A DNA stretch of 61,388 bases, counting the filler, from Malassezia furfur (Eukaryota): assembly GCA_052055015.1 (NCBI GenBank). It is 2 parts of 2 records of this genome, joined end to end, with 100 filler letters (N's around TTAATTAATTAA, not from the genome) between each part and the next. Parts side by side here need not be neighbours in the genome. Positions count along the whole stretch, not along the records: positions 1 to 30,727 come from JBQJIT010000098.1; positions 30,828 to 61,388 come from JBQJIT010000099.1. The stretch is one strand, 5' to 3'. The position numbers and the translations under genes were made by a program. The notes beneath the pieces were generated by a model. It made no database searches and was not told the origin of the DNA. It saw nothing but the letters and a program-made list of their open reading frames with translations. Shown in pieces: positions 1,840 to 59,200 of this stretch (position 1 is its first letter; every line of letters starts with the position of its first letter).

Positions 1840-2147
1840 CTACATAGCACTGGTATCCTCTGCGCCCTCCTCGGCGCGTCGCGCATGTTCGGGGTTCGGC
1901 ACGCCCGCCTGCGTCATCAGCGCAGAAAAGCGGCCCCACAGCTCGGCGATCGAGTCAAAGCCCTTGCCCACCGCGATCTGCTCTTCGAGCCGCCGGTTGG
2001 TCGCATTCACGTTCCCGATCACCGTCTCGAGACTCTGCGGTGAGCATCACAACATACACCAGCGATGTCGGCGAGAAGCCGCTCGCGCTCCCGCGCAAAG
2101 TACGACGGCGCGGCCGACGTCGCGCCCTCGTCCGGCGGCGCGACCAT
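1840..2147 (-). CDS. DAD1: DASH/Dam1 kinetochore complex subunit Dad1
   Basis: ATG 2147. 23-nt intron 2057-2035 (GTATGT..GCTCAC.GCAG). Spliced product YFARERERLLADIAGSLETVIGNVNATNRRLEEQIAVGKGFDSIAELWGRF. Confidence 0.85.
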
Positions 2148-2183
2148 GGAGGCTGCTGGCGACGCGGGGTCGCGGTCACGTGC

Positions 2184-3655
2184 CTACTTTTTGGGCGCGT
2201 AATACTGCACGGTGAGGGCCGCGCGACGTACCAGGTTGCGGAACTCGTGGGGGTCCTCGTTGGCGCGCACGGGCGCGGGGGCCGCCGCGGGGCGCGGCAT
2301 CGGCGCATTCGGCGCGTCCCGCTTCTTCTCGAGCGTGATCAGCCGGCGTCCCCACTTGCCAAAGTCCTGCAGCGAGTGCGCCACGAGCTCAAAGTGGGGG
2401 TGGGTCGGAATCGGCGTCTCGTGGTTCTCCTCGTTCATCGTCGGCAGCCAGAACACGAGGCGGCCCTCGGGCTTCAGCAGCGCCGACGCATACTCGAGCA
2501 GGTCGGCCGTCAGGTGCGACAGCGGGTACGGCTTCGTAGGCGGCACATAGTCCGGCAAGGTGTGCGACAGCGTTCCATCGGGCATCACAAACGGCTCGTC
2601 GCGCTGCTGCGCCACATCGCGCTTCCCAAGCCGCTTGGCCCCAGCACGCACACCATAGGGAGCTGCGTCAGTCTTTCACACGTACGGTCCGTGACGATCG
2701 CATCAAAGATCCCACCGCCCCCGCCGTCGCAGAACGGCGAGCGCCAGGGCGCATGCGTCATGTCAAACGTGATGGTGTCCAGAATGCGCCCCGTCAATCC
2801 ATACTGCTTCGCGCTCAGCGCAATGCCACGGCCCCCATGCTTGTCCTGGCGCCCGCGTAGCATGCGCCCATCAATATCGCTGCCGAACGAGAATGCGCCC
2901 AGCATCGAGCACGCATACAGCATCGAGCCCGTGCCCGCGAATGGGTCGTACACAAACTTGGACGGGCCAGCCAGCGCCATGTTGGCCATCACGACACTCA
3001 TCTCGCTCTCCATGCTCGTGTTCCCAATGTACTGCCGCTTCTTCAGACTGAGCTCGTCGATCAGGTCGCGCGCAGGCACACGCCCGGTACGGTCCTTAAT
3101 TTTCCGCCCAAAAAAGAGCTGCACCAGACGAGGGTCCTGGTCGCCCTGCGGCGGCGGCGCTCCGCCCGCATCGTGCGAGCGCAGGTACTCCTCAATCACG
3201 CCCCACGTCAAGTCTGCGCCCTTCATCCTCGTTGGCCCAGGCATGTCCATGTAAGAAAACGACTCGATCAGCTCCAGCCGACGCGCATCCGAAATGGCCG
3301 CATTGAAGCCCTGCATGAGCGCTTTCCACGAGACGTCCGGCCGACTGAAGGCCGCATATGGCTTTTCCGCTTGGTTGCGTGCATGCAGCTCGGCATATGT
3401 ATCCGCACAGATCCACAGCTCCCACACGGCACGCAGGCACGAGCACCGGCCGAGCAGCTCGCGCGCGGCGTCGTCCGACGGCAAACGGCAGAGCACAAAT
3501 GGGCGCTGCTCAGGCCGCACCGAGTCCAGTCGCGACGGCGTATCGAGCAGCTCATAGGGTATACCCAGGTACTTGGCCGACGCCGCAAACTCCGGCAGGC
3601 GAAAGTCGGTGTGCGACTGCGCAAAGTGCAGCACGTACACTGGCGCTTCTTCCAT
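2184..3655 (-). CDS. TRM11: tRNA (guanine-10-N2)-methyltransferase Trm11
   Basis: YIGNTSM and YDPFAGTGS SAM-binding motifs. Removing the 23-nt intron 2685-2663 restores DAIVTDPPYGVRAG. Confidence 0.92.
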
Positions 3656-3692
3656 GGTCGCACGCCGAGTGGAGGGACTTCTCCACTTGACC

Positions 3693-5410
3693 ATGTTTGG
3701 CGCGCGTCTAGGGGTGGGTCGTGCGCGAGGCAGGCCACCGGGCCGTGCGTGCGGAGGCGCGCTCGTGCGGTACGCGAGTCAGGTGCCCAAGCCCCTGGCA
3801 CAACTGCAGCGTCTCCAGTCGTTTGTGGGGGAGGCATCGGCCACAAATAGCCTGCTCGAGAAGAAGGCCATTCTTGCACGGTACCCTGACCTGGTGCCTG
3901 TCCTCGAGCGGTAGGTGCGCGACTGACTCAGGCTGTACCTTCGCTCTATGCGCTTTCATGTGTCGTCGTCCGCCTTGCGCAAGTACCTCAAACAGCATCC
4001 AAGCAACTACAACGAGCCGGCGACCCTGCCCTCTTCGCTCGAGTCGCTGTTGGACGCGCTCAGTTCGCGCACCGTGGCAGGCAACCAGGCCAAAGAGGTC
4101 CTGCGTGCATTCCTACTCAAGCACAAGATTTTTCCCAGCCGTGACGCACCGGCAAGCTCGGCGCACACGTCCCCACCGCTGCTCGACCTCTTCTATCGGT
4201 GCCTCGACCGCAACCTCAAGGCGGGCATCTCGCAGACCTCGCTGCGCAAAGCGCTCGAGTCGACGCAGGCGCACACGCGGACGCAGCAGTTCCTCGAGAT
4301 GCTGCGCACGACGGGCTCTGTCAATGCATTCCCGATGGACATTGCCCTCGCACACACCGCGACGCCCAAGCGGCTCCAACACCTGCGCAAGCACGCGCCG
4401 TGGTTCGTCTCGCGCAAGCTCGACGGAATCCGGTGCATTATGGTTGCCTCCATTGACTGTTCCCAGGGCAGCCCACGCGTGACCCACTTAGATACCCTTT
4501 CACGCACGGGCCGACCCTTGCCGTCGCTCGCGTCGCTGCGCGCTCAGCTCGCTGAGGATCTGGCGGCGTACCCAGACCTGCTTGCACTGTGCGGCGCTCC
4601 GGATGCGCACGGTATGGCGCATCTCGTGCTGGATGGCGAGCTGTGTGCGCTGCGGCCCACTGATGATGCACGCGGCGATGCCTACGTCGAGGATTTCCTA
4701 CACACGCTCTCTGTGGTGCGGCGGCACACCGACAGCCAAACGCCGATCGTGTTTTTCCCGTTCGATGGCCTGCTGCTCGACGCGTTTGTGTGCTGGCGCA
4801 CATACCTAGGGAAAGAGGATGCCCGTCCGCTGCACGCGCGGCTGGCACCCCTGCAAGCTTGGGTATCCTGGTGCCTGGCGCATCGACCCGAGACGTGCGT
4901 GCGGCGCCTCGAGCAGGTGTGTGTGTCGGACGTCACCAAGGTGGACCTCGAGCGCATGCTAGCGCAGGCGATCGAGAAGCACTGGGAGGGGCTCGTGCTG
5001 CGCGGCGATGTGCCGTACGAAGGGCGGCGGTCCAACGCGATGCTCAAGCTTCGCCCCACGCAGGAGGCCGAGTACATCGTGCGCGAGGCGGTTGTGAGCC
5101 AGATGCGCCTGCCCTTGGAGGGGCACTACGAGGAGCGCCCCGCATTGTCGCGTACGTCGCCTTCTCACCATGCAGACATTGTGATCGAGCACAAGGGCGA
5201 GCCGGTGTCGGTCGGGTCGGGCTTTTCCGCGGCCCAGCGGCTGCATTATGGCGCGCACCCCGACGAGCTACGCGGCAAGGCGGTCACAGTGATGTGTACG
5301 TGGTCCGCTACACTGACGCAGACTACCAAGAATCCATCAAAGACCAGTCGTCTTCGCTCCGATTCCCCGTAGTCAAGGGGGTATATGACACGGCCCACCG
5401 CACTCTGTAA
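3693..5410 (+). CDS. Compact ATP-dependent DNA ligase (phage/bacterial-like architecture) with putative mitochondrial presequence
   Basis: Motifs SRKLDGIR (KxDG), VLDGEL, WEGLVLR, MLKLR, VGSGFS, SLRFPV. Introns 3911-3931 (21 nt), 5152-5175 (24 nt), 5296-5321 (26 nt). Arg-rich, acid-free N-terminus. Confidence 0.85.
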
Positions 5411-5424
5411 TGCACCGCCCCCGG

Positions 5425-7340
5425 CTACTTCATCGCGCCGCCCATCCAGGCGAACACGAGGAACGCACATCCGTACGGCGAGGCAAGCTGTGTCAGTCGA
5501 GCGACGTACACGGTTCAGCATGTAGCCCATCGGCGCAGCAATCTTTCCTGTGCGCGGCCCCAACCGCTGCGCAAAGTGCCAGAACCGGCTCCCGAGCGTG
5601 CCCGCCTCCGGGCGCAGCGCCTGCAGGATCGGCGTCGGCGGCTGCGGCAATGCGGGCGGCGCAGCTCCCCATGGCCGCGGCGCGGACGCCTTGCACAGCT
5701 CGGGATACACAAACGGGCGCACAAAGTACGTCTGCGCCAGCAGCCGCAGCGACGACATGCGCGAGCCCGGCGGCGCGGTGAGTCGCGCATACCGCAGGAG
5801 CTTGGTAAAGGTGCTCTGCGCGTAGCGACGCTTGCGTGCCTTGGCGCGCGCGCGCATGGCACGCACGTTACGCGGCGGCGACGGCGGATGCGACGCGGAG
5901 GTGCGGTTCGCCGGCACACCCTTCACGACGCGCGGCAGCGAGATGCGCCGGCGCAGAGGCCGCAGGCGCCGCACCGACTGGGTGTAGCTCACGCGCGGCA
6001 CTGGGTACATGGTGCGGACCGGGCGCACCGTGTATGCGACGCTCGCCCAGCGGTGCGGCGGAATGCGCGACCTGGACGGCGTGCGCAGCGCGGACGCAGC
6101 GGGCCTGCGTGGGCGGTCCCAGACGTGCAGGCCGTACCAGAGGACCATGCGCATGTACTCGATCGGGCGGCTCACCAGTTCGTACAGCAGCGCACCGATC
6201 GCGCCGCCGCACACGAGGATGAACGCCGCCGTGATCCGCCCGTACACGGTGTGGCTTGCATTGTACGAAAAGTCGAGATGCACCTTTTCCCCGTCGTCTT
6301 CCGTGTGCTGGTTCTTGGCGAGCGCGCGCGGACCACCAAGTCGAAGGAAGCGCACGACGTTGTCGACCGCGAGCGACGCATGGAACGCGACGTACCGCGC
6401 CCACTCAAATGACACAAAGAAGCACGAGAACCCAGCGGAGTCGCGGATCAGCGAGAGGAACAGGCTTGTACCGTGCACGCGCCGCGACAGGAGGCGCAGG
6501 TGGTTCGGCAGGTGCTGGAACGCCGTCGCGGTCTTGGGCTCGCGCGAGACGGTCGGGCGCGTCATGCGCTGGATCAGGCGGTGGTACCAGTTCTCCGGCA
6601 GGAAGGGCAAGATACCGGCCTGCATGATCGTGCGCCAGGTCTGCACGGGGTGTCGTACGACTGCGGGGAGCATCGCCTGATTGCGCACATCGCGCACCAG
6701 CAAGCGCTGCAGCACCAGGCGCACGTTGTCGAGCGGCGCCGCGATGATACACTGCGCCGCACCAGCGACGGCGCCGGCAATCGCGACCACCTTGGTGGGC
6801 GTAAACCGCCCGCTGCGTTCGTACGCCTCTTCGGCGTGGTGCTTGTGAAGCAGCAGATCCTGCGTCAGAGTGTACGTCTGGAACAGCGTGAACCCGATCG
6901 CGATGTTGGCGACTGTGTCAGTTGCATCACCTACACATGGGCGGAACCACCAGCGAGAGCAAGAGGATGGGCTGCGTGAGCGGCCCAAGGCGGACGTACC
7001 TTTTCTTGTCGGATGAGCCGGCGCAGGTAGGGCACGCCGAGTTTCTTGCCCTCACGGCGTGCCATCAGCTCGACCAACGAGAGAGACGAGACTACGTGTA
7101 AGTGTGGCACGTACACTGCATGGGCCGAAACAGGCGGATCGGCCGCTGGAACATGAACGACAGCGAGCTGACCACCGCGCGCACAAAGGCGCTCGCCGCC
7201 GAGTCGATGCGGTTGATTCCGGAGCGTGCGCTCTTGACGAGCTCGCGCGACTCGGAGTCCGAGCCGTCGTTCGCAGGGATCGTTGCTGCGTCGGCCGCAT
7301 CCTGTCGCAGCGGCCCCGCTGCGCCTGTTTCCCCCGGCAT
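5425..7340 (-). CDS. Mitochondrial carrier-like membrane protein
   Basis: Carrier signatures AAPLDNVR and SRPIEYMR, plus LIRDSAGFSCFFVSFE. Introns 7114-7092, 6999-6972, 6934-6913, 5509-5488. Confidence 0.7.
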
Positions 7341-7474: not shown

Positions 7475-8963
7475 CTATTTCCAGCTAGACGAGACAAGCA
7501 CCGCGAGTGTCTGCAACGCGGCATGCCGCACCTCGGGGTCGTCGTAGTCGACCAGCCCCATGATCGCGTCCTTGGCGCCCAACGCCGTGACGCGACGCCG
7601 CCCCGTCTCAAAGTGGTGCACAAAGCGCCCAATGTCGTGGCATGCCACGGCGAGCGTCTTGGCGTCCGAGTGCGCCTCGGGCTTGACGAGCGACACGAGC
7701 AGCTTGAGGTCCTGCTCGTTGTGCTCGACGAGCTTCTCGGCGTTCTCCTTCCAGAACTCGTCGAGCGTGTGCACGGGGTTGTCGAACGAGAGGTGCTTGC
7801 TCTGCAGCTCCGACTGGTACTCCTCGTAGGAGCTCATCTGGTCCAAGCGGTTCGACAGCACCGACACGACGTATTTCAGCTGGTCACGCATCTCGTCGTC
7901 GGGGTAGTTGCGCTCCTGCAGCGTCTTGCACAGCGGCAGCACTTTGGCGCCCAGCAGGCGCGTCGCATTGTCCTCCTCGGACGCGTCGGGCGCCGTGAGC
8001 ATGTTGTCCCAGATGCCCACGATCAACCGCACAATCTTGTGCTTCAGCGCGGTCTGCGCAAGGTGCACCAGCACCGTCGCCAGCTCAAAGGACTCGTCAA
8101 TCCCCGCGGCCGCCTCAGGGTCGAAGGTGAGCACCCACAGGACAAATAGGCCTTGGTATTGCAGCTGGGGGTATCCCGCCGTGCCTTCGCGCGGCGTCTG
8201 CGTGCCCCCCCGCGTACTGGACGCCATCTTCTCCTCGAGCGACACGAGCGTGCCGACGATGGACGACTGCGACGCCTTGCGCCCTTGGACCGCCTGCTTC
8301 CACACCAGCGTACGGAACGGCGCCTGGCGCACGATCTCGCCAAGGATCAGCAGCGCGATGGATGCCGCGTTGCCGTCCGTGCGGTCGTCGGTGCCGTCCA
8401 GCGCGGTCTGCAGCTGCTTGTCGAGGAACACGAGGAGCTTCTCGAGCACCTCTTGCGGTGACGCACCGTGCGACGACGACACCGACTGGGCGCTCAGGAA
8501 CAGCGCAAGGAACTGCGCGGCCTTGAGCGAGACGAACGCGTCTTGCACATCGAGCAGTCTGCGGTGAGTCGGGGGCCACCTACTTGAGCAACGACGCATA
8601 CAGCTGCGGCGCATCCAAGAATGCGTCCAGGCGATCAGGCGCGGCCTGCACGAGATCGTCCGCCAGGAGCACGACCTGCTGAATGGTATCGGCGCGGCTC
8701 AGCTTTCCAAAAAGCCGCGTGTAGAGCGCGGCATACTGCGGTTCCTTGTCGAGGACGGTACGGAGCTGCTTATCGCGCCCCGCCTGCTCGGCGTCGCGGA
8801 GCATCTGCAGCTCTTCGGAGCTGATCAGCTCGGCGCGCTGGTAGCCCTCCCACGCAGTCTGTCGCGCACGCACCTTGTCCGCCGTCTCCTTCAGCCAGCC
8901 GTTGTCCAGCGGCATCAGCGGAGACGTCGACACCGCCTGTTGCCCGCGCTTCTCTTCCGGCAT
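7475..8963 (-). CDS. VMA13: V-ATPase V1 subunit H
   Basis: WEGYQRAELIS, QLQYQ, KHKIVR, EFWKENA, LAVACHDIG motifs. 25-nt intron 8583-8559. Confidence 0.93.
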
Positions 8964-12598: not shown

Positions 12599-13426
12599 AT
12601 GGGGTCACGGAGCCAGTTTAGGCCATGCATTGACCTGCATGGCGGCGAGGTAAAGCAGATTGTGGGCGGCACGCTCCAGCAGGACGAGTCGACGCTGCGC
12701 ACCAACTTTGTCGCGAAGCACCCGCCGGCGTACTACGCTAAATTGTACGCGGACCACGCCTTGCGCGGCGGGCACGTCATCAAGCTCGGTCCGGGCAACG
12801 ACGCAGCGGCCGAGGAGGCGCTCGCCGCGTGGCCCAACGGCCTGCAGGTGGGCGGTGGGATCACGGGCGAGAATGCAGGCGCGTGGATCGAGCGCGGTGC
12901 CGAAAAGGTGATTGTCACCTCGTACCTTTTCCCCGCGTGCCGTTTCTCGCTCGAACGCCTGCAGGAGCTCGAGGCAGCGGTGGGCAAGGAGCGCCTGGTG
13001 GTGGACATCAGCTGTCGTCGGCGTGGCGACGAGTGGGTCGTGGCGATGAACCGGTGGCAGGACTTGACGGACATGGTGCTGAGCCAAGAGACGTTGGATC
13101 TCGTGTCGGCGCACTGCAGGCACGTACACGCTTTCTACTTACACAGCGAGCTACTGATTCATGCGGCAGACGTCGAGGGCCTGTGCCAGGGCATCGATGA
13201 GCAGCTCGTAACGCGCCTGGGCGAGTGGGTGTCGATCCCGACGACCTATGCGGGCGGCGCGCGGCGTACGTATGCGCGATGACTGACCTTTGCAGACATC
13301 GAGGACCTCGAGCTCGTCAACCGACTGTCGCGCGGCAAGGTCGACCTGACGTTTGGCAGCGCGCTCGACATCTTCGGCGGGCGCGGCGTGACGCTCGACG
13401 CGCTCGTCGCGTGGAATCGTTCATAG
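12599..13426 (+). CDS. HIS6: ProFAR isomerase His6
   Basis: [44 protein letters not shown] intron 13120-13146 (27 nt) and GT-AG intron 13266-13295 (30 nt). Confidence 0.93.
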
Positions 13427-13471: not shown

Positions 13472-16184
13472 ATGGAGGGATTTGCTGGGCCGGGCGGCGC
13501 GGGCCCTGCGGGCCTGTCGCTCTCCGAGATTCTGCAGCAGTCGCGCAAGCTGACGAACCAGCTGGGGCGCGACTCGGATTTGCCGTCGATCCAGCTCGGC
13601 ATCGACCAAATTGAGAGCCAGAGCCGCAAGCTCGCGAGCAAGAGCGTGCGTAACGGCACGCCCGCCGCGGATGCGCGCGCGTACGTCCCCGAGTGACTGA
13701 CCCAGGCATTATTTGCTCGCAAGCGGCGGCATCGATGCGGTGCAGCTCACCAATGCGATCGAACACACCAACATCGCCAACACGTTTGAGCCGCTGCAGC
13801 CCGTGTACGACACGGACTTGGACGGTTTCAACCGACACGAGCACGAGCAGGTTATCCTGAGCATGATTGAGGAGAGCCGCCGCGAGACGCTGGACGACTT
13901 CCAGCGCCGCCTGGGCGATGCGCTCCACCACGACTGGCAGCGGCAAAAGCGGCGTCTCGTCGAGGAGCTCGGCGAGCACCAGCCGGATGCCCACGAGGCG
14001 AGCGCACTGCTGCGCCGCTCCGCGGGCGCCTCTGCGGCGCCCGCCAGCATCGCGGACGATGCGCCCAATGCGGCGCTGCTCCACGGCCGCATGGTGCGCT
14101 ACGACACGGTCGTCGCGCGCATGAACCGCGCGCGTGCGGAGCACGAGCCGACGCCTGTCGTGCACGCGTTCATGGAGACGGTCGAGAGCATGGTGCAGGA
14201 TGCGAGCCGCAAGCGCGCACTGCTCGAGGCGTGGACCGTGCTGAAGCACATGGTGCGCAGTGCGAGCGGCGAGCGGTCGTGCGCCGCGGCCTACCTCGAC
14301 CTCGACGCATTCCGCAGCGCGCCGGGTGCGACGCTGCGTGAGGCATGGGTCGCCGGTGCGCGCGCCTACCTCGAGGCGCAGTTTGCTGCGTACATGGAGC
14401 AGGTGATCGCCGCGGCGCCGCTGCAGGCGCAGCGCGGCGGCGTGCCGACGGTGCGGGCGACCGTCGCGGCGTTTCTGCGCGCCCAGCTGCGCACGCCGCA
14501 GGGCACATGGCCCGCGGGTGTCGCACGCGAGATGGACAGCGAAACGGACACGCCGCTGTGGGCGCACCTCTTTTACCTTGTGCGCACCGGCCACGCCGCC
14601 GAGGCGCTGCAGTGTGCGCACGCCAACGAGGCGGTGCTCCAGCGCGCGGACGGCGCCTTTTTGGCGTATTTCAAGGCGTGGCTCGACACGCCCGCACGGC
14701 AGCTGCCGCGCACGATGCGCGAGCACCTCATGGCCGAGTACGTGACGCGCTTCCGTGCCACCTCGCTCGACACGCAGGACCCGTACCACTATGCGCTCTA
14801 CCGACTGATGGGCCGCTTCGACGTTGCGAAAAAGTTTCCGGCGGCGCTCGTGGGCAGCACGGAAAACTGGCTCTGGCTCCAGCTTTGCCTCACGTGCGAG
14901 GTGCCGGGCGACGGCGACGCGCAGGACCCGACGCTGCGCGCGCTCACCCTGCGCGACCTGGCGGGCAAGCTGGAGAAGTACGGCGCGGCGCACTTCGACC
15001 CCAAGGGCACGCGCCCGCTGCACTACTTCCAGCTGCTCGTGCTCGTCGGCGAGTTTGAGCGTGCGGTGGCGTCCCTGTACGCTCAGCCCGCGTACCAGGT
15101 GGATGCGGTGCACCTGGCCATTGCGCTTACCTACTACGGCCTGCTCCGGGTGCCGGCCGCGGTGGATGCGTCGCAGTTTGAGCTGCTGAGCGTCGTGCGT
15201 GGCGTGGCGTACGTGGACCTCGCCAAGATGGTGCAGCGGTACACGCGCGCGTTTGCCTCGTCGGCGCCGCGCGAGGCGCTCGCCTACATCAGCGTGCTCA
15301 GCCTGAACGCCGATGCGCCCGCGCCGATCGGCGCCGAGCAGGTGCAGCGCTGCCACGAGTTGGTGCGTGGCCTGATCCTCGACGCGCCCTCGTCGAGCTT
15401 TGTCGAGCTGCTCGGCACGACACGCGCCGACGGCACGCCTGTGCCCGGGCTCGTCGAGCAGCACCTCGATTTGCTGCACCTCGACGACCAGCGTGCGTTT
15501 GTGCGGCGCATCGTGCTGTCAGCCGCCGAGCAGTGCGAGCGTGAGCAGCGCACCACCGACGCTATCCTCCTGTACAACCACATCGGCGAGCGCGACACGG
15601 TGATCCGCGTGCTCAACGCCGAGCTCGGCGCGACGCTCATGGACCCGGTGCCCCTCGCCGAGTTCCAGGCGCCGGGCGACGGCGCGGCGCCTGCGGCGCT
15701 CGGTGCGGCGCCGCGCCTCGTGCCGCTTGCGCGCAGCATCCTCGCAAGCTACGAGGGGCAGTTCGGCTACCAGGGCGCGGCGGGTGCCGTGTGCCACACG
15801 CTGCTCGGCGTGAAGCGTGCCGTATCGCTGTACAACGACGCGCAGCTGCTGCCCGCGCTGCAGGCACTCGAGGCGCTCCACGTCTTGCCGCTCGACGCCG
15901 AGGCTCGCAAGGACGTCGTGAGCATCACGCGCAAGGCCGACGAGTTCAAGACGCTCGACGAGAACCTCACCAAGAACTTCTCCGACGTGGTGCTGATGGC
16001 CATGACGCTGCTGTACAAGCTGCACCAGGAGCTCAAGGCGTCGGTCACGCGTACCCACTCGGGCGCGCTGTACGAGTACCGCGCGCAGGCGCGCGCACTC
16101 ATGATGTGGGCCGGCATGCTGCGCTTCCGCATGAGCAACGAGACCTACAGCCAGCTCACGCGCCTCGACGTGTACCTCCACTAG
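13472..16184 (+). CDS. NIC96: Nucleoporin Nic96/Nup93
   Basis: DLPSIQLGIDQIESQSRKL, EPLQPVYDTD, LWAHLFYLVRTG, ENWLWLQL. 25-nt intron 13681-13705. Confidence 0.92.
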
Positions 16185-18821: not shown

Positions 18822-19624
18822 ATGCTCCAACCTCGCTCGCCGTGCAGCGATGTGGGGGGCGCACGGCTCACGCTGTGCCAGGCCGTGTACGTGCCCCACT
18901 CACATTGCAGCGCCCACCTAAGCAGACAGGGGGCATGTCCGGATGGTGTATACGTGTCACCAGACAACCAAGACACTCTTCGTACGCACGCGATCCGCTC
19001 ACACAGGCTGGAACGGCGTCGTGTTCGTACGATCTGGCGCGTACGCTTCCGGCGTGTTTCGGTTCAGCATTCAATTTACTACGGTTGGAAGCATTCTGGC
19101 GATACCGTCCGTGTTTTTGCCCCAGATCCTCTTGCACCCACTCGTAGAGGTACGTCGCTGCTGCCCTCACGCAGCCGGGCGATGGGCGCCTCAATCTGCA
19201 GCCGTTCCTTGCGCTCGCCCATGAGCACGGGTGGGAAACGGTGCCAGATCAACCAGAATTCTTTGCGGCACTCACGCAGTATATCGCAGCCTGTTTCGAC
19301 GACACGCTCCTCGAACGGCTCTCCGCGTCGTGGATCCGGAATGAGCGCATGTATACGTACGTTGCCCCACCCGGACCCTGACCCAGCCTCTTTACCACCG
19401 AAAAAACGCTCTTTGGCCGCCTCGCACAACAATCGGCAAGCTTGTCCAACGCCGACGCGGGCCTCTACGATGCGCACTCAGGCAGCAACGTCCCCGGCGA
19501 CATGGACTTTACGCTACTGCCCCATCACAAACAAGCGCAAAAACAGCCACCATCCAGTGCACTTCCTTTCGCACCCTTGTCCGATATCGAGTTCGCGCGC
19601 ATACGCGACCACATCCAGCCATAG
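18822..19624 (+). CDS. UBC-fold pseudo-enzyme, FTS/AKTIP/crossbronx-like
   Basis: Appears only after removing introns 18887-18910, 18982-19006, 19150-19174 and 19357-19386: CPDGVYVSP..LRWNGVVFVRSGAYASGVFRFSIQF..LHPLVEPGDGRLNL. Confidence 0.8.
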
Positions 19625-29108: not shown

Positions 29109-29746
<638 letters not shown>

Positions 29747-40521: not shown

Positions 40522-41647
40522 TCAAACTGGCGCAGGTGCCTCCACCAAAGAGGTTGATACATCCGTTTGTGATTGGGCGCTGGGCGCGGAGGGTGAATCC
40601 GTGTTCTTCTTGGCGAATGGGGTGCAGTCTTGCAGGACCTTTTGCTCAAGTTGTACCACGGCCCCTGCAAGTAGTTCGATTTGGCGTCGGGCTTGTCCAA
40701 GCGTTTGTGCCTCTTCCTGCAGGAGCGTGGCAATTTGTATATTTGCGATCTCCTCCGGGGATGACGATGGGACTGGCTTGGCCGAGTTGCCAAATTGGAA
40801 AAACTCTGTGCGGCCGACATCTAACAGCTGCGATAGGCTCGATGTACTTTGCTCCAACGTAAGAAGTACAGCAGCAAAGTTCTGGCTCATCATCACAATG
40901 ATGTCGTACGTGGTTAGGCCCGGGAAGGCACGCGTCCACCAAGGCTGTGAGTCCCACACAACCAATTGGATCTGGATTGCAAAAACACACGCTTGAAGCA
41001 GGAGACCCCACTGGGTTAGAGAGGGACGTACGTAGGTTCCTGCACCCACTGCATGGCTTCTGCCGCGCCCAACAAGCCATGCAAGGACTTGCATGCCCAG
41101 GAATTGGAACTGTAGGGCAAAGATCATCCGCACGCCTTGAATAAGGAACTCGCGCATGGTGCTGAGCCTCCGCCACGAGTCGGGGTCTTCGCCAAACCTG
41201 AACGTAAATCTACCACACGTACCTGTCGTAAGCGTAGCGTAGTAAAGGGTCGGACAACACTGTATAGGCGTGCTGGAGCCGCAGAAACAGTCCTTCATGC
41301 TCGAGTCCAGCCTTGTCTGGGTGATAAATCCGGGCAAAATGGCGGTATCTTTGTTTAATTTCATGCTCTGTCGCAGAGGGGCTCAGTCCAAGGACAGCAT
41401 ATAGGTTCGGAGGCAATCCCGTATAGCTACGCACCACGCAGTAGGCCAGGTACAGCAGGACGACCATCATCCGGGCTGTATGCCAATGCGTGATCGCTGC
41501 GGCGCTTTTCGGCGGAGGTCGGTGCAGCCTGAATGGACCTGGCAGACCATATGCAGCTTGGAGGACCATACGAATGCCGAAGCTTTCCGCTGCACCCCAG
41601 GCGCCCCAGAGCAGGACTTGGTTGACGACGGCCTTCACTAAGCTCAT
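40522..41647 (-). CDS. Membrane-anchored DnaJ-domain protein
   Basis: NLYAVLGL..YHPDK..AYTVLSDP..RYAYDRFG with flanking TM helices. Introns 41222-41198 and 41031-41011. Confidence 0.85.
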
Positions 41648-45475: not shown

Positions 45476-46614
45476 TCACGACCATGTGTTTCGCATAATC
45501 GTCATAATTGCCTCTTCGACATTGTCCGCGATAAGTGTTGGTTTGTGTGCCGGCGGACCTTCCACATCGCGAAACACACCCGTACGCACGAGAGCCGACG
45601 ACCAGCCAAAGTTGTTTGCGCCCATGATGTCCGATGCAGGGTTGTCGCCGATCATCCAGATGTTTTCTGGAGCAACGTGGATGTCATTGCCATTCGAAGC
45701 ACGGTTCAGCAACATTTGTAGAAGCTCATTGGCATATTCGTACGTCATTTGTTCGGGTTTTCCGAAGGTGATTGCGTTCATTTCGTCTCCGTCCGTGACA
45801 CGCTTGTACACAGCCTCGAGCGCCGTACGGAAAGCACCTTGCCCAAGGCGAGGGAGTGCAAAATCGTTACCCCACAGCAAATCGCCATGCGAGAAGTAGA
45901 TGGGAATCTTGCGCCGCTTCCGCAATTCTTCGTTGGTGATCATCGTGCCAAACACGCCCTGGTCCGAGCGCAGGATGTCCAGGCAGAATTGAATATCGCG
46001 GCCCCATTCACGACTGTCGTGAAATACAAAAATTGCTTCAAATTGGATCTTCGAGAAATCGGCGAGCCGCACGGCATCCTGCTGCTCAGGGTCAGGGTCC
46101 GCGTAAGGGAAAGAGGCAGGCGCATAGGCATGCAAATCAAATGCGGTGTACACTTGGTTGAAGCCATAACTGTGTCAGTGCATTTTACATACGACTCTAA
46201 GACAGAGCGAGAGCCACCAGGCGGCAGGTTGGGTCCTCCGATCATCAGGACGGGCTTGTCGGCGTAAAGTGATACCAACGACTGCATCACAGTGTGAGCC
46301 TGAATGACTTGCTCTGGCACGATTTTCTGCTGAAAATCATCCGACAGATCTAAAGCACGTTTTGCCTCTTCTTTTCCACCGCTGTTGGTGATGAATAGGT
46401 AAGGTACCTTTGTCTGCCAGGGATTATCACCCTCGAGCATCTTGAGTGTTCTCACAGCCTCAGGAAGCACGACCGAACCTTGCTTCAGTACACCATCAAT
46501 GTCGAACGCAATCGCAAGTGGAGTACGCTGCTTTGTAGTGGCAATCGTGCGCACCAGGTGCCTTGCGGATCCCAAACAGCGCACGCCCCGCAGACCACTC
46601 CGTAGAAGACTCAT
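45476..46614 (-). CDS. HAD-superfamily IIA hydrolase (CECR5/HDHD5-like), probably mitochondrial
   Basis: AFDIDGVL, ITNSGG, FGKP, MIGDNPASDI. 23-nt intron 46192-46170. Confidence 0.9.
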
Positions 46615-46745: not shown

Positions 46746-47318
46746 ATGCTTCTCCGCTCGTACGCTCGCCCTGCTTCGCAATTCATGCGCTTGATGGCTC
46801 CGTCGGTGCAGCCTGTGCGCACCGTGACGTCGCTGAGCAAGACGATGTACACGGCGAAGGCGGAGTCGTCCGGTGGCGGTCGTAACGGCGTCGCTAAGCT
46901 TCGTGAGGAGGGCCCTTTGAAATTCCAGCTGGCCTTGCCCAAAGCGCTTGGTGGTAGCGGCGAAGGCCAGAACCCCGAGCAGTTTTTCGGTACGTTCCAT
47001 GCCTAACGTAGCCATGGGCTATTCTGCTTGCTTCTTGAGTGCGTTGAACAGCATTGCTCGTGGTCAGAAGTACAAGCTGCCCGAGGATGTTGAGGTGCAC
47101 GCAGATGTGAGCATCGGTGTGCCCGAAGGCTCGACGGGCTTTTCGCTTGCGGTGGAGCTCGTTGTGAAGGGCTCTTTCCCCGACTCTGACAAGACGACCG
47201 TTGAGAAACTGGTGCACGAGGCCCACCAAATGTGCCCCTACAGCCGCGCTACGTACGTTATTTTTCCATCCTCTCACACAGCCGCAACAACATTCCGGTG
47301 TCGGTGTCGGTGGCCTAA
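46746..47318 (+). CDS. ohr: Ohr/OsmC organic hydroperoxide reductase with mitochondrial-like presequence
   Basis: GGGRNG, NPEQFF, GYSACF, AHQMCPYSRAT. Introns 46990-47011 and 47253-47281. Confidence 0.92.
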
Positions 47319-47490: not shown

Positions 47491-47801
47491 ATGCTGGGAC
47501 TAGGGACCATCTTCTATATGGCTTTGCTTTTAATTAATGCCATTGCGATCCTGAATGAAGAGCGCTTTCTGAACCGAGGTATGATGACAAGCTAACCGCA
47601 AGTGGGCTGGTCCAACAACTCCCGGTCGATGAGCTTCGACACTGACTCGGAAGCGGGGGTCAAAACGCGGCTCGTGAACTTAATAAGTGCTGTCCGTGTC
47701 TTGCTACGGAGTATGTCTGACTTGAACGTAAATCCCTTACAACAGTTCCGCTTATCGTCGTCAACATCCTTGTGATTATTTACGAGCTTATCCTAGGCTA
47801 A
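47491..47801 (+). CDS. YOS1: ER-Golgi trafficking protein Yos1/IER3IP1 (absent from ORF track)
   Basis: LLLINAIAILNEERFLNRVGW..KTRLVNLISAVRVLLRIPLIVVNILVIIYELILG after introns 47579-47602 and 47711-47745. Confidence 0.92.
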
Positions 47802-52993: not shown

Positions 52994-53612
52994 ATGTTCG
53001 CTTCGCGGGTGGTGCGCACGCCTTGTGTACGGTTTGTGCGCAATGTGCAGAAATCGATGTAAGTGACTTGCTCACCCAGGCTCGAAATCGGCGGACATGA
53101 CTCGCACAACACAGCGAACCTGTCGGTGCTCAAAGCGCGTCCCGGCCGTATCGAAGGCGAGTTTGCGATCGGCAAGGAGAATTGTAGGTCGTGCTGCTGA
53201 CGCAGTGAACCGCGCCGGAACGCTCCATGGCGGTCTCATTATGACGCTCGTTGACTCGGTTGGATCGCTCGCTGTCGCTTCTAAGGGCTGGTACAATACA
53301 GGGATCTCGACTGACATCAACGCGACCTTTGTTAAGCCCGGCGGGCGCATGGGCGACAAGGTCACCGTTCTGGGCGAGGTCGTTGGCATGGGTACGTTTT
53401 GTGCACTCACGCAGGCAAGACACTCGCGTACACGCGCATCGAGTTGCGCGATCCCAAGACGCAGGCCATCCTCGGTTTGTCACTACGTGCTAACCGCAGC
53501 CTACGGCAGTCACACCAAATTCATCCGCATGGCGTTTGGGTCAAAGGAAAACGTAGAATTTGACGAGTCCGGTGAGAAGGTCGTGCAGGGCACGCTTCCG
53601 GAGGGCGTGTGA
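52994..53612 (+). CDS. Hotdog-fold acyl-CoA thioesterase (ACOT13/PaaI-like)
   Basis: LNRAGTLHGG..TLVDSVGS, GISTDI, GKTLAYT, AYGSHTKF. Introns 53059-53079, 53184-53205, 53392-53414, 53475-53499. Confidence 0.9.
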
Positions 53613-56600
53613 CTAGGGCTGCGTCACCCAGCGCCCCTGCTCGTAGCGCTGCTTGGCAGTGATGGCCGGTAGTTCCCAACCCAGTCCCTGTCCCGCCCCG
53701 CCGTCCTCCATCGCGCCCCCGTACCGCGGCGTGAGCAAGACGTCGCGCTCGAGCACCCCGCTTAAACCTTTTTTGCTTTCGCGTATCGAGGTCGCCAGTT
53801 TCCCAAGCGTCGCCGAGGGCTGTGCCTCGGTCGGCTGCGAAAAGGTGCACAGAGTGCGGCCGAGCTTGGGCAGCCACGCGGGGTTGATGCGTGTGAGCAT
53901 CTTGAGCCACACCTTGGGCGCTGGCGCCTCATCCTCCTCGGCAGCCGCATACTTCGGCGTGCTCTGGTGCAGTTCGCCAAACACGACCCACTCGGGCGGC
54001 GGGCGGTGGAAGAAGGTCGAACTCATGTGGATGTACACAGGCCCTTGAACGCCCAGCGCCACGTATGGAACGTGGCGCGTGCTTGCGAGCTTGCTGCCCC
54101 GCGCCGCAGGCGTGTTTTCCGCCTCAGGTGCACCAACGACATCGGCACGGACCGCGACACGGTCAATATAGATCGCCGCGAGGAGCTGACGGAGCACTTT
54201 GCACTGCACCGCGGACGGTGGCGCTAGTGACGGATCGAGTAGACGCCGTTCCTCGGCATCCGAGATGCCGCTCAAGTTCGCAAGCATGATCTGCCCTAGC
54301 TGTGCACGGAGCTGGTGGATCTCTTCCATGGCCTTGCGGCGCACAAAATGCGATTGGCAGAATGCCGAGGCAGCGCCTTGGGCGGCCTCGTGCGCGTAGG
54401 CGCCGACAACGCTCAGTAGACGGAAGGCATCACTCTGGCCCTCACCGAGCGCGTCAAAGACGCGCATTGCGCCATAGTAGGCTGCGCGCGCCTTGCGGCG
54501 CACCTCTTTGATCTCGGCAGGGTCCATGTCAGGCGGCACATCAGGCGTCCGATCCTCGCGCTCGAATACGTCGCCGACGCTCAACGCCGCGACCAAGGCG
54601 GCAGCATACGGCAGACACCCCTGCTGGTTGCCCTGGGCGAGCAGTTTGGCGTACCGCGGAAGCACGGGGAACAGCGCCATGACGCGACCCAAGGCGGTGA
54701 TTGACGCGTGCAGATCGCGCCGGCCACCGGCATGGCGAGCCTCGGCGGCCTCCAGGGCACCGAGGTGGACGAGTGTGCGCTCAGCGCGACGCAATGCGTC
54801 GCGCTCGGGCGCGGTGGGGAAGGGGAAGTTGGCGACGTTGTCAATGTTCATGGCCTTCATTTGCAGCACAAGCCCTTCGACCGGTGTGCGCAAAATTTCC
54901 GGCACACTAAACGGAGGGAATACTTCCTCGTACACTGCCGACGAGTACAGCCGGTAGCAGTGACCGGGGCCTGTACGCCCTGCACGACCTGCCCGCTGCG
55001 CCGCCGATGCCTTGCTGATCCATGTGATGTTGTACGACTGCACCTGGCTCCTCGAGTCCAAATGGCGCTCCTTGGCGCGGCCCGTATCGACGACGTACTT
55101 GATATTGGGAATCGTGATCGAGGTCTCGGCGACGTTGGTCGCGACAACAACCAGTCGCGTATTCTCCGGGGGGTCTTCAAACACGCGCTGCTGCTCCTCG
55201 TTGGGCAGCAACGAGTAGAGCGGCAGGATGTGCATCGGCATCGACGATGGTTCCAGCATACCGAGCTCGTCGTCCGCCTCTCCCTCGTCGTCGTCATCGT
55301 CCGTATCGAGTGCCTCGGGATCCGCTTCCACGTCCTCCGGCTCGTCCATGGCCGGCAGCGCATCGGTGCCGAGTTCGACGTCCTCGGCCTCGAGGGCAAC
55401 GTTGCGCGCCGAGAGCGCCTGTGTGCGCGCCGGTATACGTTGTGCCGCTTTGCGTGCGATCGCATCGGCGCCGTATCGCTGCTGCAGTTTGCGGCACACC
55501 AGCATCACCTCCTGTTGGCCCGTGACAAAAATGAGAATCCCGCCGTGAGGCAGCCGCGCGTGGATCTTGGACGCCTTCTTGATGGCCTCTGTGACGTAGT
55601 CCTGCACGGTGCGGCGGTTAAAGTGGATTGCCACGGGGTGCTGCCTCGCTCCAATCTGGATCAGCGGAGGTGGTGTAGGGAAGAGCGTGGTGTTCTGCGT
55701 AAAGTCACCCACACGCAGCGTTGCGCTCATGATCACCAGGCGCAGCGGACGCGGGGATGCGAGACCCAGCTCGCCACTCGCCCACCGCTGCTCGCGCAGG
55801 CGCACAACACGGCTCAGCATGCCGATCAGCACGTCGGTGTTGACGCTGCGCTCGTGCGCCTCGTCGACCACAATCACGCTGTACTTGGTCAAGAGCAAGT
55901 CTTGTGCCAGCTCACGCAACAGCACACCGTCCGTCATAAACTTGATCTGCGTGTGGGGACCGGTGGTTGCGTCGTACCGAATCTGGTGCGCCACGCGGTG
56001 CGAGTCCAGGCCCAGCTCATGGGCTACACGTTTGGCCATACTCACAGCGGCGACACGGCGCGGCTGCGTGACGCCAATCATACCAGGATTCGCTGCGTAA
56101 GTGGGGATGACATACCGCTCCCGGCTGTGGCGTAGGCAGCCTCGTACAAGAATTGGGGGATCTGGGTCGTTTTCCCGCTGCCTGTTTCACCACACAGCAC
56201 CGTCACCGGGTTTTCGTTGATGGTGCGCACGACGAGGTCTTCTTCCGCAACCACCGGCAGCGCCATGCGTGCCGCCTGTAGTGCCTCGTCGCGCTGGACC
56301 GGGACGTGACGGACGGGCGCTTGGGTTGCACGGAAATGCGCCTCTTCGTCGAAGAACCGCTTTGCAAACGACGACTTGGAGGCGGGCGACGCAACGTCTC
56401 GGCCTAGCGGACCACGCGCCTTGCCGTCCTGCGGGCCCAAGTCCCGCACACGCACGACGTGACCACCCACCGGCTGTAATTCGTGCCCGTCGGTGTCAAA
56501 ATCAGGACGCGCAAGGTGCATGGCCTCCATAGCCCACTGCTTGAAGGCCTTGGTGCGAGCCGACTCGCCGAGACCCCAGCGCTTGGACTGGGGTGCATCG

Positions 56601-58037
56601 GCCTCAGCAGTTTCCTCCGCATCGGCGTCAGAGACCTCGGAGTCATCTTCCTCCTCCTCCTTTTCGTCGTCGTCGTCCTCCTCCTCTTCGTCATCGTCCG
56701 AGTCAACGACTTCTTCCTGTTTCTCGTCGTCATCCTCCTCCTCTTCGTCATCGTCCGAGTCAACGACTTCTTCCTGTTTCTCGTCGTCATCCTCCTCATC
56801 TTCCTCATCTTCTCCGTCCCCCGTCTCTTGGTCTTCACTGTCGACGTCGCTCTCTTCCGTACTCTCGTCGGAATTTGAATCTGCTGCCTTCTTCTTCCCC
56901 TTACTCCTAGGAGCTTCGAAGGCGGCATCATCGGGAAGCATGCCGCGCAGGCGCATCGCATGCAGTAACACGGCTTCCTCCTCCTCATCCGTCTCTTCCT
57001 CTTCTGAAATAAGCTCATCGGTAGCGACCGATTCGTCGCTGTCCATAGCCTCATCGGCTTCCGGCCGCTTCCACGCACGTTCGGCAGCGACCCGTTTCCG
57101 CGACTCTTCGATGGCCTTGTCCACATCGTACATGTGCACGCTCTCGTCGTGGTCATCGCTGTCGTTGTCGCTGTCGTCGGTGTCGTCGCTGCTGCCTTCA
57201 TCGCTGTCACCGCTGTCGCTGTCACTGCGCGGTGCCTTGCCCATGCGTCCGTACCGAATACGGTCCTGTACAGACAAATTCACCTTGCTCTGTGGCCCCG
57301 TCCGCTTGCGCTTGCGCACGATTGGCGCGACCGGCTGACCGTCGGGGCCCATGGCGAGCGCCGAGCCGACGGCCGGCGCAGCGGCCGGCGCCGTCTCCGT
57401 CGATGGCGTATCAAAGCGGCGCGCGGCCTCAACGATGCGCGAATGCCGTGCATCGGCTTCTTCTTGCGTGGGGAGTTCGGGCTGCTCCGGCTCGTCGATG
57501 AGCTCGCGCTCGAGCTCCTCAGTGTCGGGCGCCGCATCGAGGTCCTCGTCCTCGTCGTCTTCTTCCACCTGGAAGGCGCCACGTTTGGAGGAGGAGTGTG
57601 CTCCTAGCATCTTTTGCACTCGCTCCGCCTCGCGTGCAGCGCGGCCCGTGCCGAGCGTGGCGGCGCTCACCAGCTCGGTGCGGTCGCGAATGTCGGCAGA
57701 CGAGTGCGCGAGCTTCTCCAGGAGCCGCGCCTTTTCCTCCTTGCGCAATTTGGCCTCAATGTACTTGTCAAGCCTGCGCTTCTTCTTGTTGTTGATACGT
57801 GTGCTTTCGTCGTTGCCGCCTTCGCGCAGGAGCTGGGTGAGTGCGTCAACGTACCTCGCGGCGACGCCGGTCGGCTTCAGCGAGCGCAGCGCGCGTCGCA
57901 TCATCCATGATGAGCGCATTGCTGTTCGCCTCTTGGTCGGCGATGCGCTCACGCATCGACTTCTTGCCCTTGTGCGAGCCGCCAACGCTCGACTGGCGCG
58001 CCTTGGCATTGAACCGCTCGCGCCGCTTTGGCCGCAT
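53613..58037 (-). CDS. DHR1: DEAH helicase Dhr1/Ecm16 (DHX37)
   Basis: RERFNAKAR start, GETGSGKTTQ, DEAH, MSATL, QRAGRAGRTGPG. Introns 57854-57833 and 56115-56093. Confidence 0.93.
56676..56789 (-). repeat. Exact 57-nt tandem duplication in the DHR1 acidic region
   Basis: Two identical units, 56676-56732 and 56733-56789, each encoding DDEKQEEVVDSDDDEEEED. Confidence 0.9.
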
Positions 58038-58106
58038 GGTGCGAGGTGGAGGCCACTTTTTTTCGCGCACGGCTTAGTCACCGGGGTTCGTGGTGCGCTA
58101 CGCTGG

Positions 58107-59200
58107 CTATATGGGGGGCACAAAGTCATTGATGCGGTCGCGCGCGTTCTGCGCGATACACTCGGCGATCCAGCAAATCGAGCGGATTTCCTGCTCTTTG
58201 AGTTTGAGCCAGGAGTAGAAAATGCCGTACTCGAACTGGTTCATCGTCAAAAGACGGTTCACTGCGGTCAGTGCTGCATCGACGTACTCTCCACCTCCAA
58301 CTCGAACATCTTGTCCTCAAGCATGTCGGCGTTCACCTCCCCGCCCGCCGACATGTTACTCCCGTTGTTGTCCTCAAACAGACGGCGGTATTCCGGCACG
58401 GACTCGACGATCGCCTTGACCTGGTCGAGTTCGTCGGCCTTGGCGAGCGCGTTGTTCCCCGCAGGGTACAGCTTGCCGATCGTCGGGAAGAGGCGCGCGC
58501 GCTCCGTCTTGCTCAGCGACGTGCCGAACGAGTTGATGGTGATATTAATCGTGCGGCGATCCGCCTCGAACGCCAGCAGTTCGCCCATGCTCTCGGCGGT
58601 CGTGGCGTTGAGTGTCTGTGTGAACTGGTAAAAGTCTTCCAGGTAAGCCTTGTACAGCTTGTTGCGAATGATCTCGATGTTGAGATCGTCCAGCTCCGAC
58701 GCCGAGAGACAGTCACGGAAGTAGGCGGAGAGCGGCGTCTCGACGAGCACGGTGCGATACAGCTCCTCGACGCTCGTTGCGACACACAGCGCCGGAAGCG
58801 TGTCGAACCACCCCAGCGGGTGGCACCGATCGAGCAGCTCGTGCGTGTCGCGGCCATGGAGAGTGCCCGTAATCAGGAGGATGACGTTGTCGATCATGTA
58901 CGAGTAGGTGAGATAGTCGAGGAACTTGCTCAGCGGCGCGGTCGAGTTCGTGCGCAAGTACTCAAACTCACTCACGAGCCGCTGCGTTGCGCGGTTCGCG
59001 ATTGCCGACGTGCTCAGCGGCGACGGCTCGTTCGCGAGGAAGTTGCCGTAATCCGTCGCGGAGAGCTGCATGCGCATGTCGTCCAGCGTCTCGCACTGCG
59101 TCAGCGCCTGGTAGTTGGGTCCAGTAAGCATCGAGTTGCGGTACCCGCGCACGATCCCCTCTAGGAAGCCGCCATTGATGTTGAACGTGAGCGCCTCCAT
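58107..59200 (-). CDS. VMA6: V-ATPase V0 subunit d
   Basis: MEALTFNINGGFLEGIVRGY, CHPLG, FEADRR, LKLKEQEIR..WIAECIAQ. 26-nt intron 58287-58262. Confidence 0.95.

Follow-up and report, generated by a model that had tools for sequence, protein, structure and literature searches.

Predicted micro-introns of 21–35 nt in a window of the Malassezia furfur genome

Very short introns are a described feature of Malassezia genes (review, PMC7426719). In M. sympodialis, 5350 introns make up the curated set; their mean length is 30 bp, RNA-seq supports 99% of them, and its addition gave 156% more supported introns than homology-only annotation (PMC5389616, including supplementary figure S8). The median intron of M. 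restricta is 30 bp, annotated at minimum intron settings of 20 and 15 (PMC6473144, PMC9241646), and minimum settings in published Malassezia annotation fall within 10–20. Here we analysed one stretch of Malassezia furfur DNA (the window; 61,388 nucleotides (nt), ~62% G+C), to which all our counts refer. This M. furfur DNA very probably holds ~61 U2-type GT-AG introns in 26 genes, with a 16 + 5 nt floor and intron-defined splicing, as judged from the sequence. Like the introns of M. sympodialis and M. restricta, these are GT-AG micro-introns in the same genus; unlike the 30 bp of those species, the window has a median of 23 nt and a mean of 23.9 nt, taken from one window of another species. An earlier reading of this DNA from sequence alone (the sequence-only reading) had described Malassezia as known for short introns, and the published means and medians of 30 bp agree. 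Both the short-intron system and the low minimum-intron settings it calls for have been published for the genus; the sharp geometry, the very low M. furfur median, and the persisting annotation errors are useful details and not a new kind of biology.

Outside the fungi, ciliates of the Paramecium type have intron lengths in a narrow band around 25 nt that breaks off sharply at its lower end (PMC5014332). Our single window resembles them in its narrow distribution, its mode below 30 nt (21 nt here), and its sharp lower edge, and differs from ciliates in its strong, fixed-position branch consensus in GC-rich DNA. Paramecium is reported to avoid stop-free introns whose length is a multiple of three. 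In the window, by contrast, 21/61 introns had such lengths and 13 of these 21 lacked an in-frame stop; we looked for a Paramecium-like deficit of this class and found none in this small sample. Retention of a stop-free multiple-of-three intron would add 7–10 residues to the product without nonsense-mediated decay. Microsporidia, dicyemids, and myxozoans have median introns of 22–27 bp in compact or parasitic genomes (PMC13644364). The animals of that study show reduced splice-site motifs, whereas all three signals are strong here, and Malassezia, unlike that group, is a culturable, transformable yeast. The same 2026 survey names ciliates, Microsporidia, and dicyemids as the known cases under 30 bp; Malassezia does not appear in its available sections (PMC13644364), and the genus seems under-recognised in intron research. 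Our literature search, which covered the available sections of papers without bioRxiv supplements, found no 21-nt Malassezia floor, no 16 + 5 geometry, and no spliceosome study, and the same sections of the Malassezia papers stated neither a GTACGT / CTGAC or CTCAC / CAG consensus nor chains of 18–24-nt exons.

Detection and anatomy of the micro-introns

We scanned both strands with a strict pattern (GT, A or G, any base, GT; a branch motif CTNA followed by C or T; 0–8 nt; YAG) whose minimum possible match is 14 nt. The scan returned 57 matches, 54 of which were ≤35 nt (12 at 21 nt, 11 at 22, 9 at 23, 5 at 24, 4 at 25, 4 at 26, then scattered ones and twos up to 35), and zero at 14–20 nt, although the pattern reaches down to 14 nt. 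Across 200 dinucleotide shuffles, matches ≤35 nt averaged 5.05 and never exceeded 11, while those ≤20 nt averaged 0.86. First-order Markov resampling (n = 300) gave 0.21 matches at 21 nt against 12 observed, 0.84 at 14–20 nt against none, and 3.56 at 21–35 nt, or ~3.6 expected at ≤35 nt against 54.

Seven introns with a slightly off-consensus signal were added to the strict set on the criterion of reading-frame continuity. Their deviations were the 5' sites GTTCGT, GTTTGT, and GTACGC, the branch motifs TTAAC, TTGAC, and TTTAC, and one AAG 3' end; five of the seven were afterwards confirmed by orthologue alignment or a common intron position. The relaxed regular expressions used to pick these additions, and for nothing else, returned hundreds of matches, mostly within coding sequence and without a frame change. 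The curated set comprised 61 introns of 21–35 nt in 26 genes (hand count) of roughly 45: 13 at 21 nt, 12 at 22, 11 at 23, 5 at 24, 7 at 25, 4 at 26, one at 27, two at 28, one at 29, two at 30, and one each at 31, 32, and 35. These numbers, from an independent scan, are identical to those of the sequence-only reading (61 introns in 26 genes, 21–35 nt, 13 at 21 nt, none shorter). A Viterbi gene finder without a length prior was rejected, having fused genes and bridged stop codons via weak 60–100-nt pseudo-introns. A stricter version merged adjacent micro-introns across micro-exons and served solely to give the lengths of above-threshold candidates, a spectrum that begins at 21 nt except for one unused 17-nt match. 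Rfam and tRNA scans of the window gave no match.

GT starts and AG ends were present in 61/61 introns, as the search pattern required. The 5' hexamer was GTACGT in 39, GTAGGT in 8, GTATGT in 7, GTAAGT and GTGCGT in 2 each, with three singletons; the 3' end was CAG in 54, TAG in 6, and AAG in one, and the exon flanks carried little information content. A YTNAY motif near the 3' splice site, assigned as the branch site on the motif, was likewise found in 61/61 (CTGAC in 24, CTCAC in 19). The branch A lay at intron position 16 or later in every intron (position 16 in 19, 17 in 14, 18 in 9, with a tail to 29). From the branch A to the 3' end there were 5 nt in 36 introns, 6 in 15, 7 in 6, 8 in 3, and 9 in one, never fewer than 5 though the pattern permitted 4. 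The 21-nt floor is the sum of these two separate minimum distances, 16 + 5, each with a pile-up at its boundary, and both minima occurred together in 13 introns versus 11.2 expected under independence (Fisher p = 0.40). The 3' site was the first AG downstream of the branch A in 61/61, and none of the 61 had an AG 3–4 nt past it. Only 5–9 nt separate the branch A from the 3' end, too few to accommodate a polypyrimidine tract. The placement of the branch A at 16 or later and the missing polypyrimidine tract, both claimed previously for the introns then checked, held throughout the set.

The 13 spacers of the 21-nt class were all-different hexamers with a mean pairwise identity of 0.31 versus 0.27 expected, which argues against recent copying and against introner-like or mobile introns. 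U12-type introns carry an extended 5' splice-site and branch consensus; no U12-type 5' hexamer occurred among the 61. C occupied 5' position +4 in 43/61 introns, and lower-GC relatives used GTATGT, GTAAGT, and GTGCGT more evenly. Either GC pressure or a corresponding change in U1 or U6 small nuclear RNA (snRNA) could underlie this preference; the window held no snRNA gene. Micro-exons of 23, 21, 19, and 18 nt stood between two micro-introns on the plus strand (42912-42934, 42958-42978, 43512-43530, 43559-43576), and one of 24 nt on the minus strand (38835-38858). The splice sites around these micro-exons lie nearer to one another than a spliceosome footprint, which suggests that the introns must leave in some order.

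Reading-frame and homology evidence

Statistics, reading frame, homology, and the conservation of positions across species support the elements as real GT-AG introns of the spliceosomal type. We scored coding frames by codon log-likelihood, trained on nine long intronless open reading frames (ORFs). Among 34 candidates with a length that is not a multiple of three, 26 shifted the locally best coding frame by the exact intron length, for which chance is 1 in 3. Twenty junctions were gap-free against orthologous proteins: 13 in an oligopeptide-transporter (OPT) gene, four in a Ca3427-like gene, and three in an HRQ1-type helicase gene. The spliced OPT product showed 13/13 gap-free junctions at 74% identity to an intronless orthologue at a metagenome locus (L003:10001-12280), and was colinear with proteins of M. 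vespertilionis and Pseudozyma flocculosa (P0123, P0124, P0129). In the Ca3427-like gene 4/4 junctions were gap-free against six full-length orthologues, including those of Ustilago maydis, U. bromivora, P. flocculosa, and M. cuniculi. All three HRQ1 junctions were colinear with four homologues, and the spliced N-terminus had no gap of 7 amino acids (aa) against P0266, P0267, and P0271.

About six further junctions were backed by continuity of Pfam or PDB coordinates, with exons scanned singly against Pfam; coordinates abutted across introns in the Arf-family gene (two), malate dehydrogenase (two), V-ATPase subunit d, and V-ATPase subunit H. Arf positions ran 2-28 in exon 1, 30-63 in exon 2, and 64-174 in exon 3, with a split codon at 29. 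Exon 1 of malate dehydrogenase ended at residue 43 of the human mitochondrial enzyme (2dfd_A) and exon 2 began at residue 44. V-ATPase_H_N covered 2-98 in exon 1 and 114-314 in exon 2 of subunit H, and vATP-synt_AC39 covered 1-289 and 295-338 in the two exons of subunit d. Elsewhere the domain match began where an exon began: DASH_Dad1 positions 16-55 at residue 1 of the exon downstream of 2035..2057, OsmC positions 14-89 at residue 1 of the exon after 46990..47011, and the kinase hidden Markov model (HMM), which resumed at its position 29, at residue 3 of the exon downstream of 18050..18073. In the DEAH helicase the P-loop ends the exon upstream of 56093..56115, and the DEAD HMM picks up at 93 in the downstream exon. 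The spliced translations also contained the conserved motifs that the sequence-only reading had claimed splicing to restore, DPPY and GKTT; removal of 2663..2685 from the TRM11-like gene gave ...IVTDPPYGV....

Nine of the thirteen 21-nt introns were confirmed at amino-acid resolution, and those at 3911 and 53059 carry an in-frame stop; the DNA-ligase-like reading frame is continuous only with 3911..3931 removed. Intron positions were common to syntenic relatives at three sites in OPT, three in the thioesterase gene, and one in the HAD-type hydrolase gene, whose L001 orthologue shifts frame at the corresponding point (residue ~141), where it carries a 25-nt intron. Lengths and sequences differed at these positions (21 versus 23, 22 versus 28, and 25 versus 28 nt in window and relative), which is the pattern expected of real introns.

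Several points weigh against this reading. About 4–5 of the 54 strict matches may be chance, and detection depends on the motif, such that introns with no recognisable branch site would escape. Eight of the 34 candidates failed the frame test; two of these were validated later in the OPT gene and the rest lie near short exons or gene ends. Failures included 5488..5509, with weak coding scores; 6972..6999, beside a 37-nt exon; and 38155..38185 and 47253..47281, both at gene ends and placed by a reading-frame model. The 21-nt introns at 34729 and 41011 were called from the motif; the L003 orthologue is uninterrupted at the site of 41011..41031, but is only ~30% identical. Motif-level or weak support applies to the introns at 2205 (a multiple of three with no in-frame stop), 18887, 18982, 39708 (frame shift as expected, but a gene model score near 0), and 47711 (outside every confirmed coding sequence). 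Six of the 61 introns have a second branch-like motif upstream, and we chose the downstream one. The sample is 61 introns from one 61-kb window, and rare shorter introns are possible elsewhere. The shortest intron among ~15 in two relatives was 23 nt, compatible with the same rules and with no genus-wide floor evident. Excision and branch points are themselves read from sequence.

Readings of the 21-nt floor

From these features we infer actual excision and lariat formation on the following model. Each intron is pared down to three signals in close succession: a 5' site, in most cases GTACGT; a spacer no shorter than 6 nt; and a CTNAC branch with its A at position 16 or later. The 3' splice site would be the first AG at least 5 nt past the branch A. 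Splicing would have to be intron-defined, because exons of 18, 19, 21, 23, and 24 nt sit between introns and are too short for exon definition, and it could not draw on a polypyrimidine tract. The spacer, never under 6 nt, may be as short as a connection can be if the 5' site and the branch helix are to meet in the catalytic core, and the three nucleotides between the branch A and the AG may be the shortest loop with which the 3' site reaches the active site.

Human spliceosomes require a separation of ~50 nt from 5' site to branch site, and in the human B complex the U6/5' site and U2/branch site helices are 15 nm apart, implying ~52 nt (PMC6692369). In the window the branch A can be the 16th nucleotide, so early Malassezia assembly would have to differ in geometry or order. 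We infer that both minima would be set physically by the catalytic core and that early complexes would assemble in a manner unlike the human one. As a full account, with true physical limits at 16 and 5, assembly on sites six nucleotides apart without reading of a polypyrimidine tract, and a different order or architecture of early recognition, this is a possibility we put forward tentatively. If the limits are physical, such a geometry would not fit the human A and B complexes; U1 might, for example, leave before U2 and the tri-snRNP (small nuclear ribonucleoprotein) engage, or U2AF-type factors might be lost or remodelled. The steric lower limit proposed in the sequence-only reading is plausible, and the adapted spliceosome that it also proposed is possible. 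Its hard floor stood in part: no intron in the window was below 21 nt and both distances pile up at their minima, with which a hard functional limit is consistent.

The floor might instead be soft, with 21 nt marking the edge of a small sample from a genome that holds some functional 18–20-nt introns. Only 61 introns from one window were examined, and there are reports of splicing below 21 nt in other lineages. We consider a soft floor unlikely, as the mode sits at the minimum (13, 12, and 11 introns at 21, 22, and 23 nt) with nothing below, both scans could detect 14–20 nt, both component distances crowd at their own minima, and no gene with homologues required a shorter intron for colinearity. 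The limit might also be informational or mutational, deletion bias having shrunk introns to their signals plus a few bases, with still shorter ones within the capacity of the spliceosome. Taken by themselves the signals occupy 14 nt, the 13 spacer hexamers of the 21-nt class all differ and share no sequence relationship, and the lower-GC relatives lie slightly above the floor, as such a limit would allow. It predicts spacers of 0–5 nt and AGs 3–4 nt past the branch A, neither of which occurs in the 61 introns, and the human distance between 5' site and branch site is a physical assembly constraint (PMC6692369); we regard it as distinctly improbable.

A noticeable share of the set, mainly stop-free introns with lengths in multiples of three, could be coding sequence that fits the motif fortuitously and stays in the transcript. 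Of the 21 introns with such lengths, the 13 that lack a stop give the frame test nothing to detect, and 3.6–5 chance matches are expected. Homologue alignments lack the segments at 42979, 43690, 39109, 31031, 31147, and 31499, however, and abutting Pfam coordinates exclude 29593 from the Arf product; the case of 5152..5175 is weaker, as it separates a DNA_ligase_A_M exon (positions 11-203) from a DNA_ligase_OB_2 exon, two separate domains with non-abutting coordinates. At exactly 21 nt, 0.21 chance matches are expected versus 12 observed, and we judge this explanation very improbable.

Work on how a spliceosome removes introns far below the human ~50-nt spacing meets the difficulty that most organisms which have them resist culture or manipulation. 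A yeast with a 23-nt median, fixed strong signals, and a 16 + 5 geometry would allow deletion-series, lariat-mapping, and structural work. Should the physical-limit account be true, Malassezia would be a tractable yeast for the biochemistry and structure of a minimal-intron spliceosome.

Gene models, related loci, and feature list

Public protein models depart from the predicted structures at micro-introns, in line with the earlier expectation that such genes would be misannotated. The public M. furfur OPT protein (P0118, 697 aa) agrees with ours through 11 junctions, reads through the intron at 44015-44036, and stops 24 codons on; its tail matches the read-through translation of the window in 16/24 residues at equal length. 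The OPT models of M. yamatoensis (P0119), M. psittaci (P0120), and M. brasiliensis (P0143) deviate locally at the clusters of 18–23-nt exons. Among Ca3427-like models, P0185 and P0186 each lack an exon, and P0185, from M. yamatoensis, lacks exactly the 8 residues of the 24-nt micro-exon. Public proteins of at least four Malassezia species (M. furfur, M. yamatoensis, M. psittaci, and M. brasiliensis) are thus wrong where micro-introns and 18–24-nt exons cluster, and from these errors it follows that the protein sets of a medically relevant genus still carry avoidable mistakes.

Within the Ca3427-like gene, alternative introns of 41 nt (CAG-ending, at 39324) and 67 nt were ruled out by the orthologue alignment. 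The AAG 3' site of 39324-39346 is the first AG past the branch site, as in L001 near 4640-4670 and L003 near 18761-18783.

Six loci (L001-L006; 47-50% G+C), which seem to derive from two related species, are syntenic with the window from gene 40522-41364, just upstream of OPT, as far as the DEAH helicase gene. They held ~15 recognisable introns of 23–38 nt, with the branch A at position 17 or beyond and followed by 5 nt or more. Of the 13 OPT introns here, three are kept in L001:3103-5463 and none in L003:10001-12280. Judged from these loci, intron turnover within the genus is fast, and loss in the relatives or gain here are both possible.

Table 1. Introns and related features of the window. 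Branch, intron position of the branch A + nt from it to the 3' end; frame, best coding frame shifted by the intron length as expected; L001 and L003, loci of related species.
Feature	Coordinates	Strand	Length (nt)	Branch	Remarks
Intron, Dad1 gene	2035..2057	-	23	17 + 6	frame
Intron, TRM11-like gene	2205..2231	-	27	19 + 8	precedes 7-aa last exon; motif-level
Intron, TRM11-like gene	2663..2685	-	23	18 + 5	frame
Intron, DNA-ligase-like gene	3911..3931	+	21	16 + 5	in-frame stop if retained
Intron, DNA-ligase-like gene	5152..5175	+	24	16 + 8	
Intron, DNA-ligase-like gene	5296..5321	+	26	21 + 5	frame
Intron, gene 5425-7340	5488..5509	-	22	17 + 5	reading-frame model
Intron, gene 5425-7340	6913..6934	-	22	17 + 5	frame
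Intron, gene 5425-7340	6972..6999	-	28	23 + 5	reading-frame model
Intron, gene 5425-7340	7092..7114	-	23	16 + 7	TAG; reading-frame model; frame test failed
Intron, V-ATPase subunit H gene	8559..8583	-	25	19 + 6	frame
Intron, histidine-biosynthesis (His_biosynth) gene	13266..13295	+	30	21 + 9	in-frame stop if retained
Intron, Nic96/Nup93 gene	13681..13705	+	25	20 + 5	frame
Intron, protein-kinase gene	18050..18073	-	24	18 + 6	multiple of 3, no stop
Intron, weakly supported gene 18822-19624	18887..18910	+	24	16 + 8	motif only, low coding scores
Probable intron, gene 18822-19624	18982..19006	+	25	20 + 5	GTACGC; relaxed pattern; least secure
Intron, gene 18822-19624	19150..19174	+	25	20 + 5	frame
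Intron, gene 18822-19624	19357..19386	+	30	25 + 5	in-frame stop if retained
Intron, Nse4 gene	24579..24604	-	26	20 + 6	TAG; frame
Intron, DEAD-box helicase gene	28902..28924	+	23	17 + 6	frame
Intron, Arf-family GTPase gene	29457..29488	-	32		Pfam continuity; frame
Intron, Arf-family GTPase gene	29593..29616	-	24		Pfam continuity; GKTT restored
Intron, HRQ1-type helicase gene	31031..31051	+	21	16 + 5	homologue colinearity
Intron, HRQ1-type helicase gene	31147..31170	+	24	18 + 6	homologue colinearity
Intron, HRQ1-type helicase gene	31499..31519	+	21	16 + 5	homologue colinearity
Intron, unknown-family gene 34207-34908	34729..34749	-	21	16 + 5	no in-frame stop; motif-level
Intron, malic enzyme gene	36632..36653	-	22	17 + 5	frame
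Intron, malate dehydrogenase gene	37245..37270	+	26		PDB continuity
Intron, malate dehydrogenase gene	37496..37517	+	22		Pfam Ldh_1_N 17-92 / 94-141 across exons; frame
Intron, malate dehydrogenase gene	38155..38185	+	31	25 + 6	precedes 13-aa last exon
Ca3427-like binding-protein gene	38336-39427	-			introns of 23, 21, 22, 21 nt and 24-nt micro-exon
Ca3427-like intron	38814..38834	-	21		gap-free vs orthologues
Ca3427-like micro-exon	38835..38858	-	24		codes for HETGFFMW stretch conserved in orthologues
Ca3427-like intron	38859..38880	-	22		branch TTGAC; gap-free vs orthologues
Ca3427-like intron	39109..39129	-	21		gap-free vs orthologues, no 7-aa insertion
Ca3427-like intron	39324..39346	-	23		AAG 3' splice site; orthologue-supported
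Candidate intron, poorly supported gene 39510-40290	39708..39729	-	22	16 + 6	
Intron, gene 40522-41364	41011..41031	-	21	16 + 5	no in-frame stop
Probable intron, gene 40522-41364	41198..41222	-	25		branch TTTAC; relaxed pattern; frame
OPT oligopeptide-transporter gene	41723-44286	+			13 introns, all within 3' 1.4 kb; 757-aa spliced product
OPT intron 1	42891..42911	+	21		L003 + protein colinearity
OPT intron 2	42935..42957	+	23		after 23-nt exon; L003 + protein colinearity
OPT intron 3	42979..42999	+	21		after 21-nt exon; L003 + protein colinearity
OPT intron 4	43066..43088	+	23		L003 + protein colinearity
OPT intron 5	43319..43339	+	21		branch TTAAC; L003 alignment
OPT intron 6	43381..43405	+	25		L003 alignment; position common to 25-nt L001 intron
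OPT intron 7	43490..43511	+	22		L003 alignment
OPT intron 8	43531..43558	+	28		after 19-nt exon; L003 alignment
OPT intron 9	43577..43597	+	21		after 18-nt exon; L003 alignment
OPT intron 10	43690..43710	+	21		L003 alignment
OPT intron 11	43742..43764	+	23		5' site GTTCGT; required for frame; gap-free vs L003
OPT intron 12	44015..44036	+	22		L003 alignment; position common to 25-nt L001 intron
OPT intron 13	44120..44141	+	22		L003 alignment; position common to 28-nt L001 intron
Intron, HAD-type hydrolase gene	46170..46192	-	23		frame
Intron, OsmC-like gene	46990..47011	+	22		frame
Intron, OsmC-like gene	47253..47281	+	29	24 + 5	precedes 12-aa last exon
Candidate intron upstream of ORF 47949-52208	47711..47745	+	35	29 + 6	motif only
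Intron, 4HBT thioesterase gene	53059..53079	+	21		in-frame stop if retained; L003 23-nt intron, same position
Intron, thioesterase gene	53184..53205	+	22		frame; L003 28-nt intron, same position
Intron, thioesterase gene	53392..53414	+	23		frame; missing in L003 (coding contiguous)
Intron, thioesterase gene	53475..53499	+	25		GTTTGT; relaxed pattern, frame; L003 28-nt intron, same position
Intron, DEAH helicase (DHX37-like) gene	56093..56115	-	23		frame
Intron, DEAH helicase gene	57833..57854	-	22		frame, strong coding scores both sides
Intron, V-ATPase subunit d gene	58262..58287	-	26		frame

Runs of 44 N at 30728-30771 and 30784-30827 coincide with the 3' end of a CAP-Gly domain gene (29646-30779), whose end is unreadable. 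The ORF at 47949-52208 (+; 1419 aa, intronless) outscored the rest of the window for coding and is conserved at ~33-35% identity in the relatives' syntenic loci, with no Pfam domain at E <= 0.001. The intronless exocyst Sec15 ORF at 24879-27233 (-; 785 aa) was 99% identical to an M. furfur protein, which places the window in M. furfur or a very near relative, with next matches in M. yamatoensis (86%), M. vespertilionis (79%), other Malassezia (70-76%), and smut fungi (50-60%).

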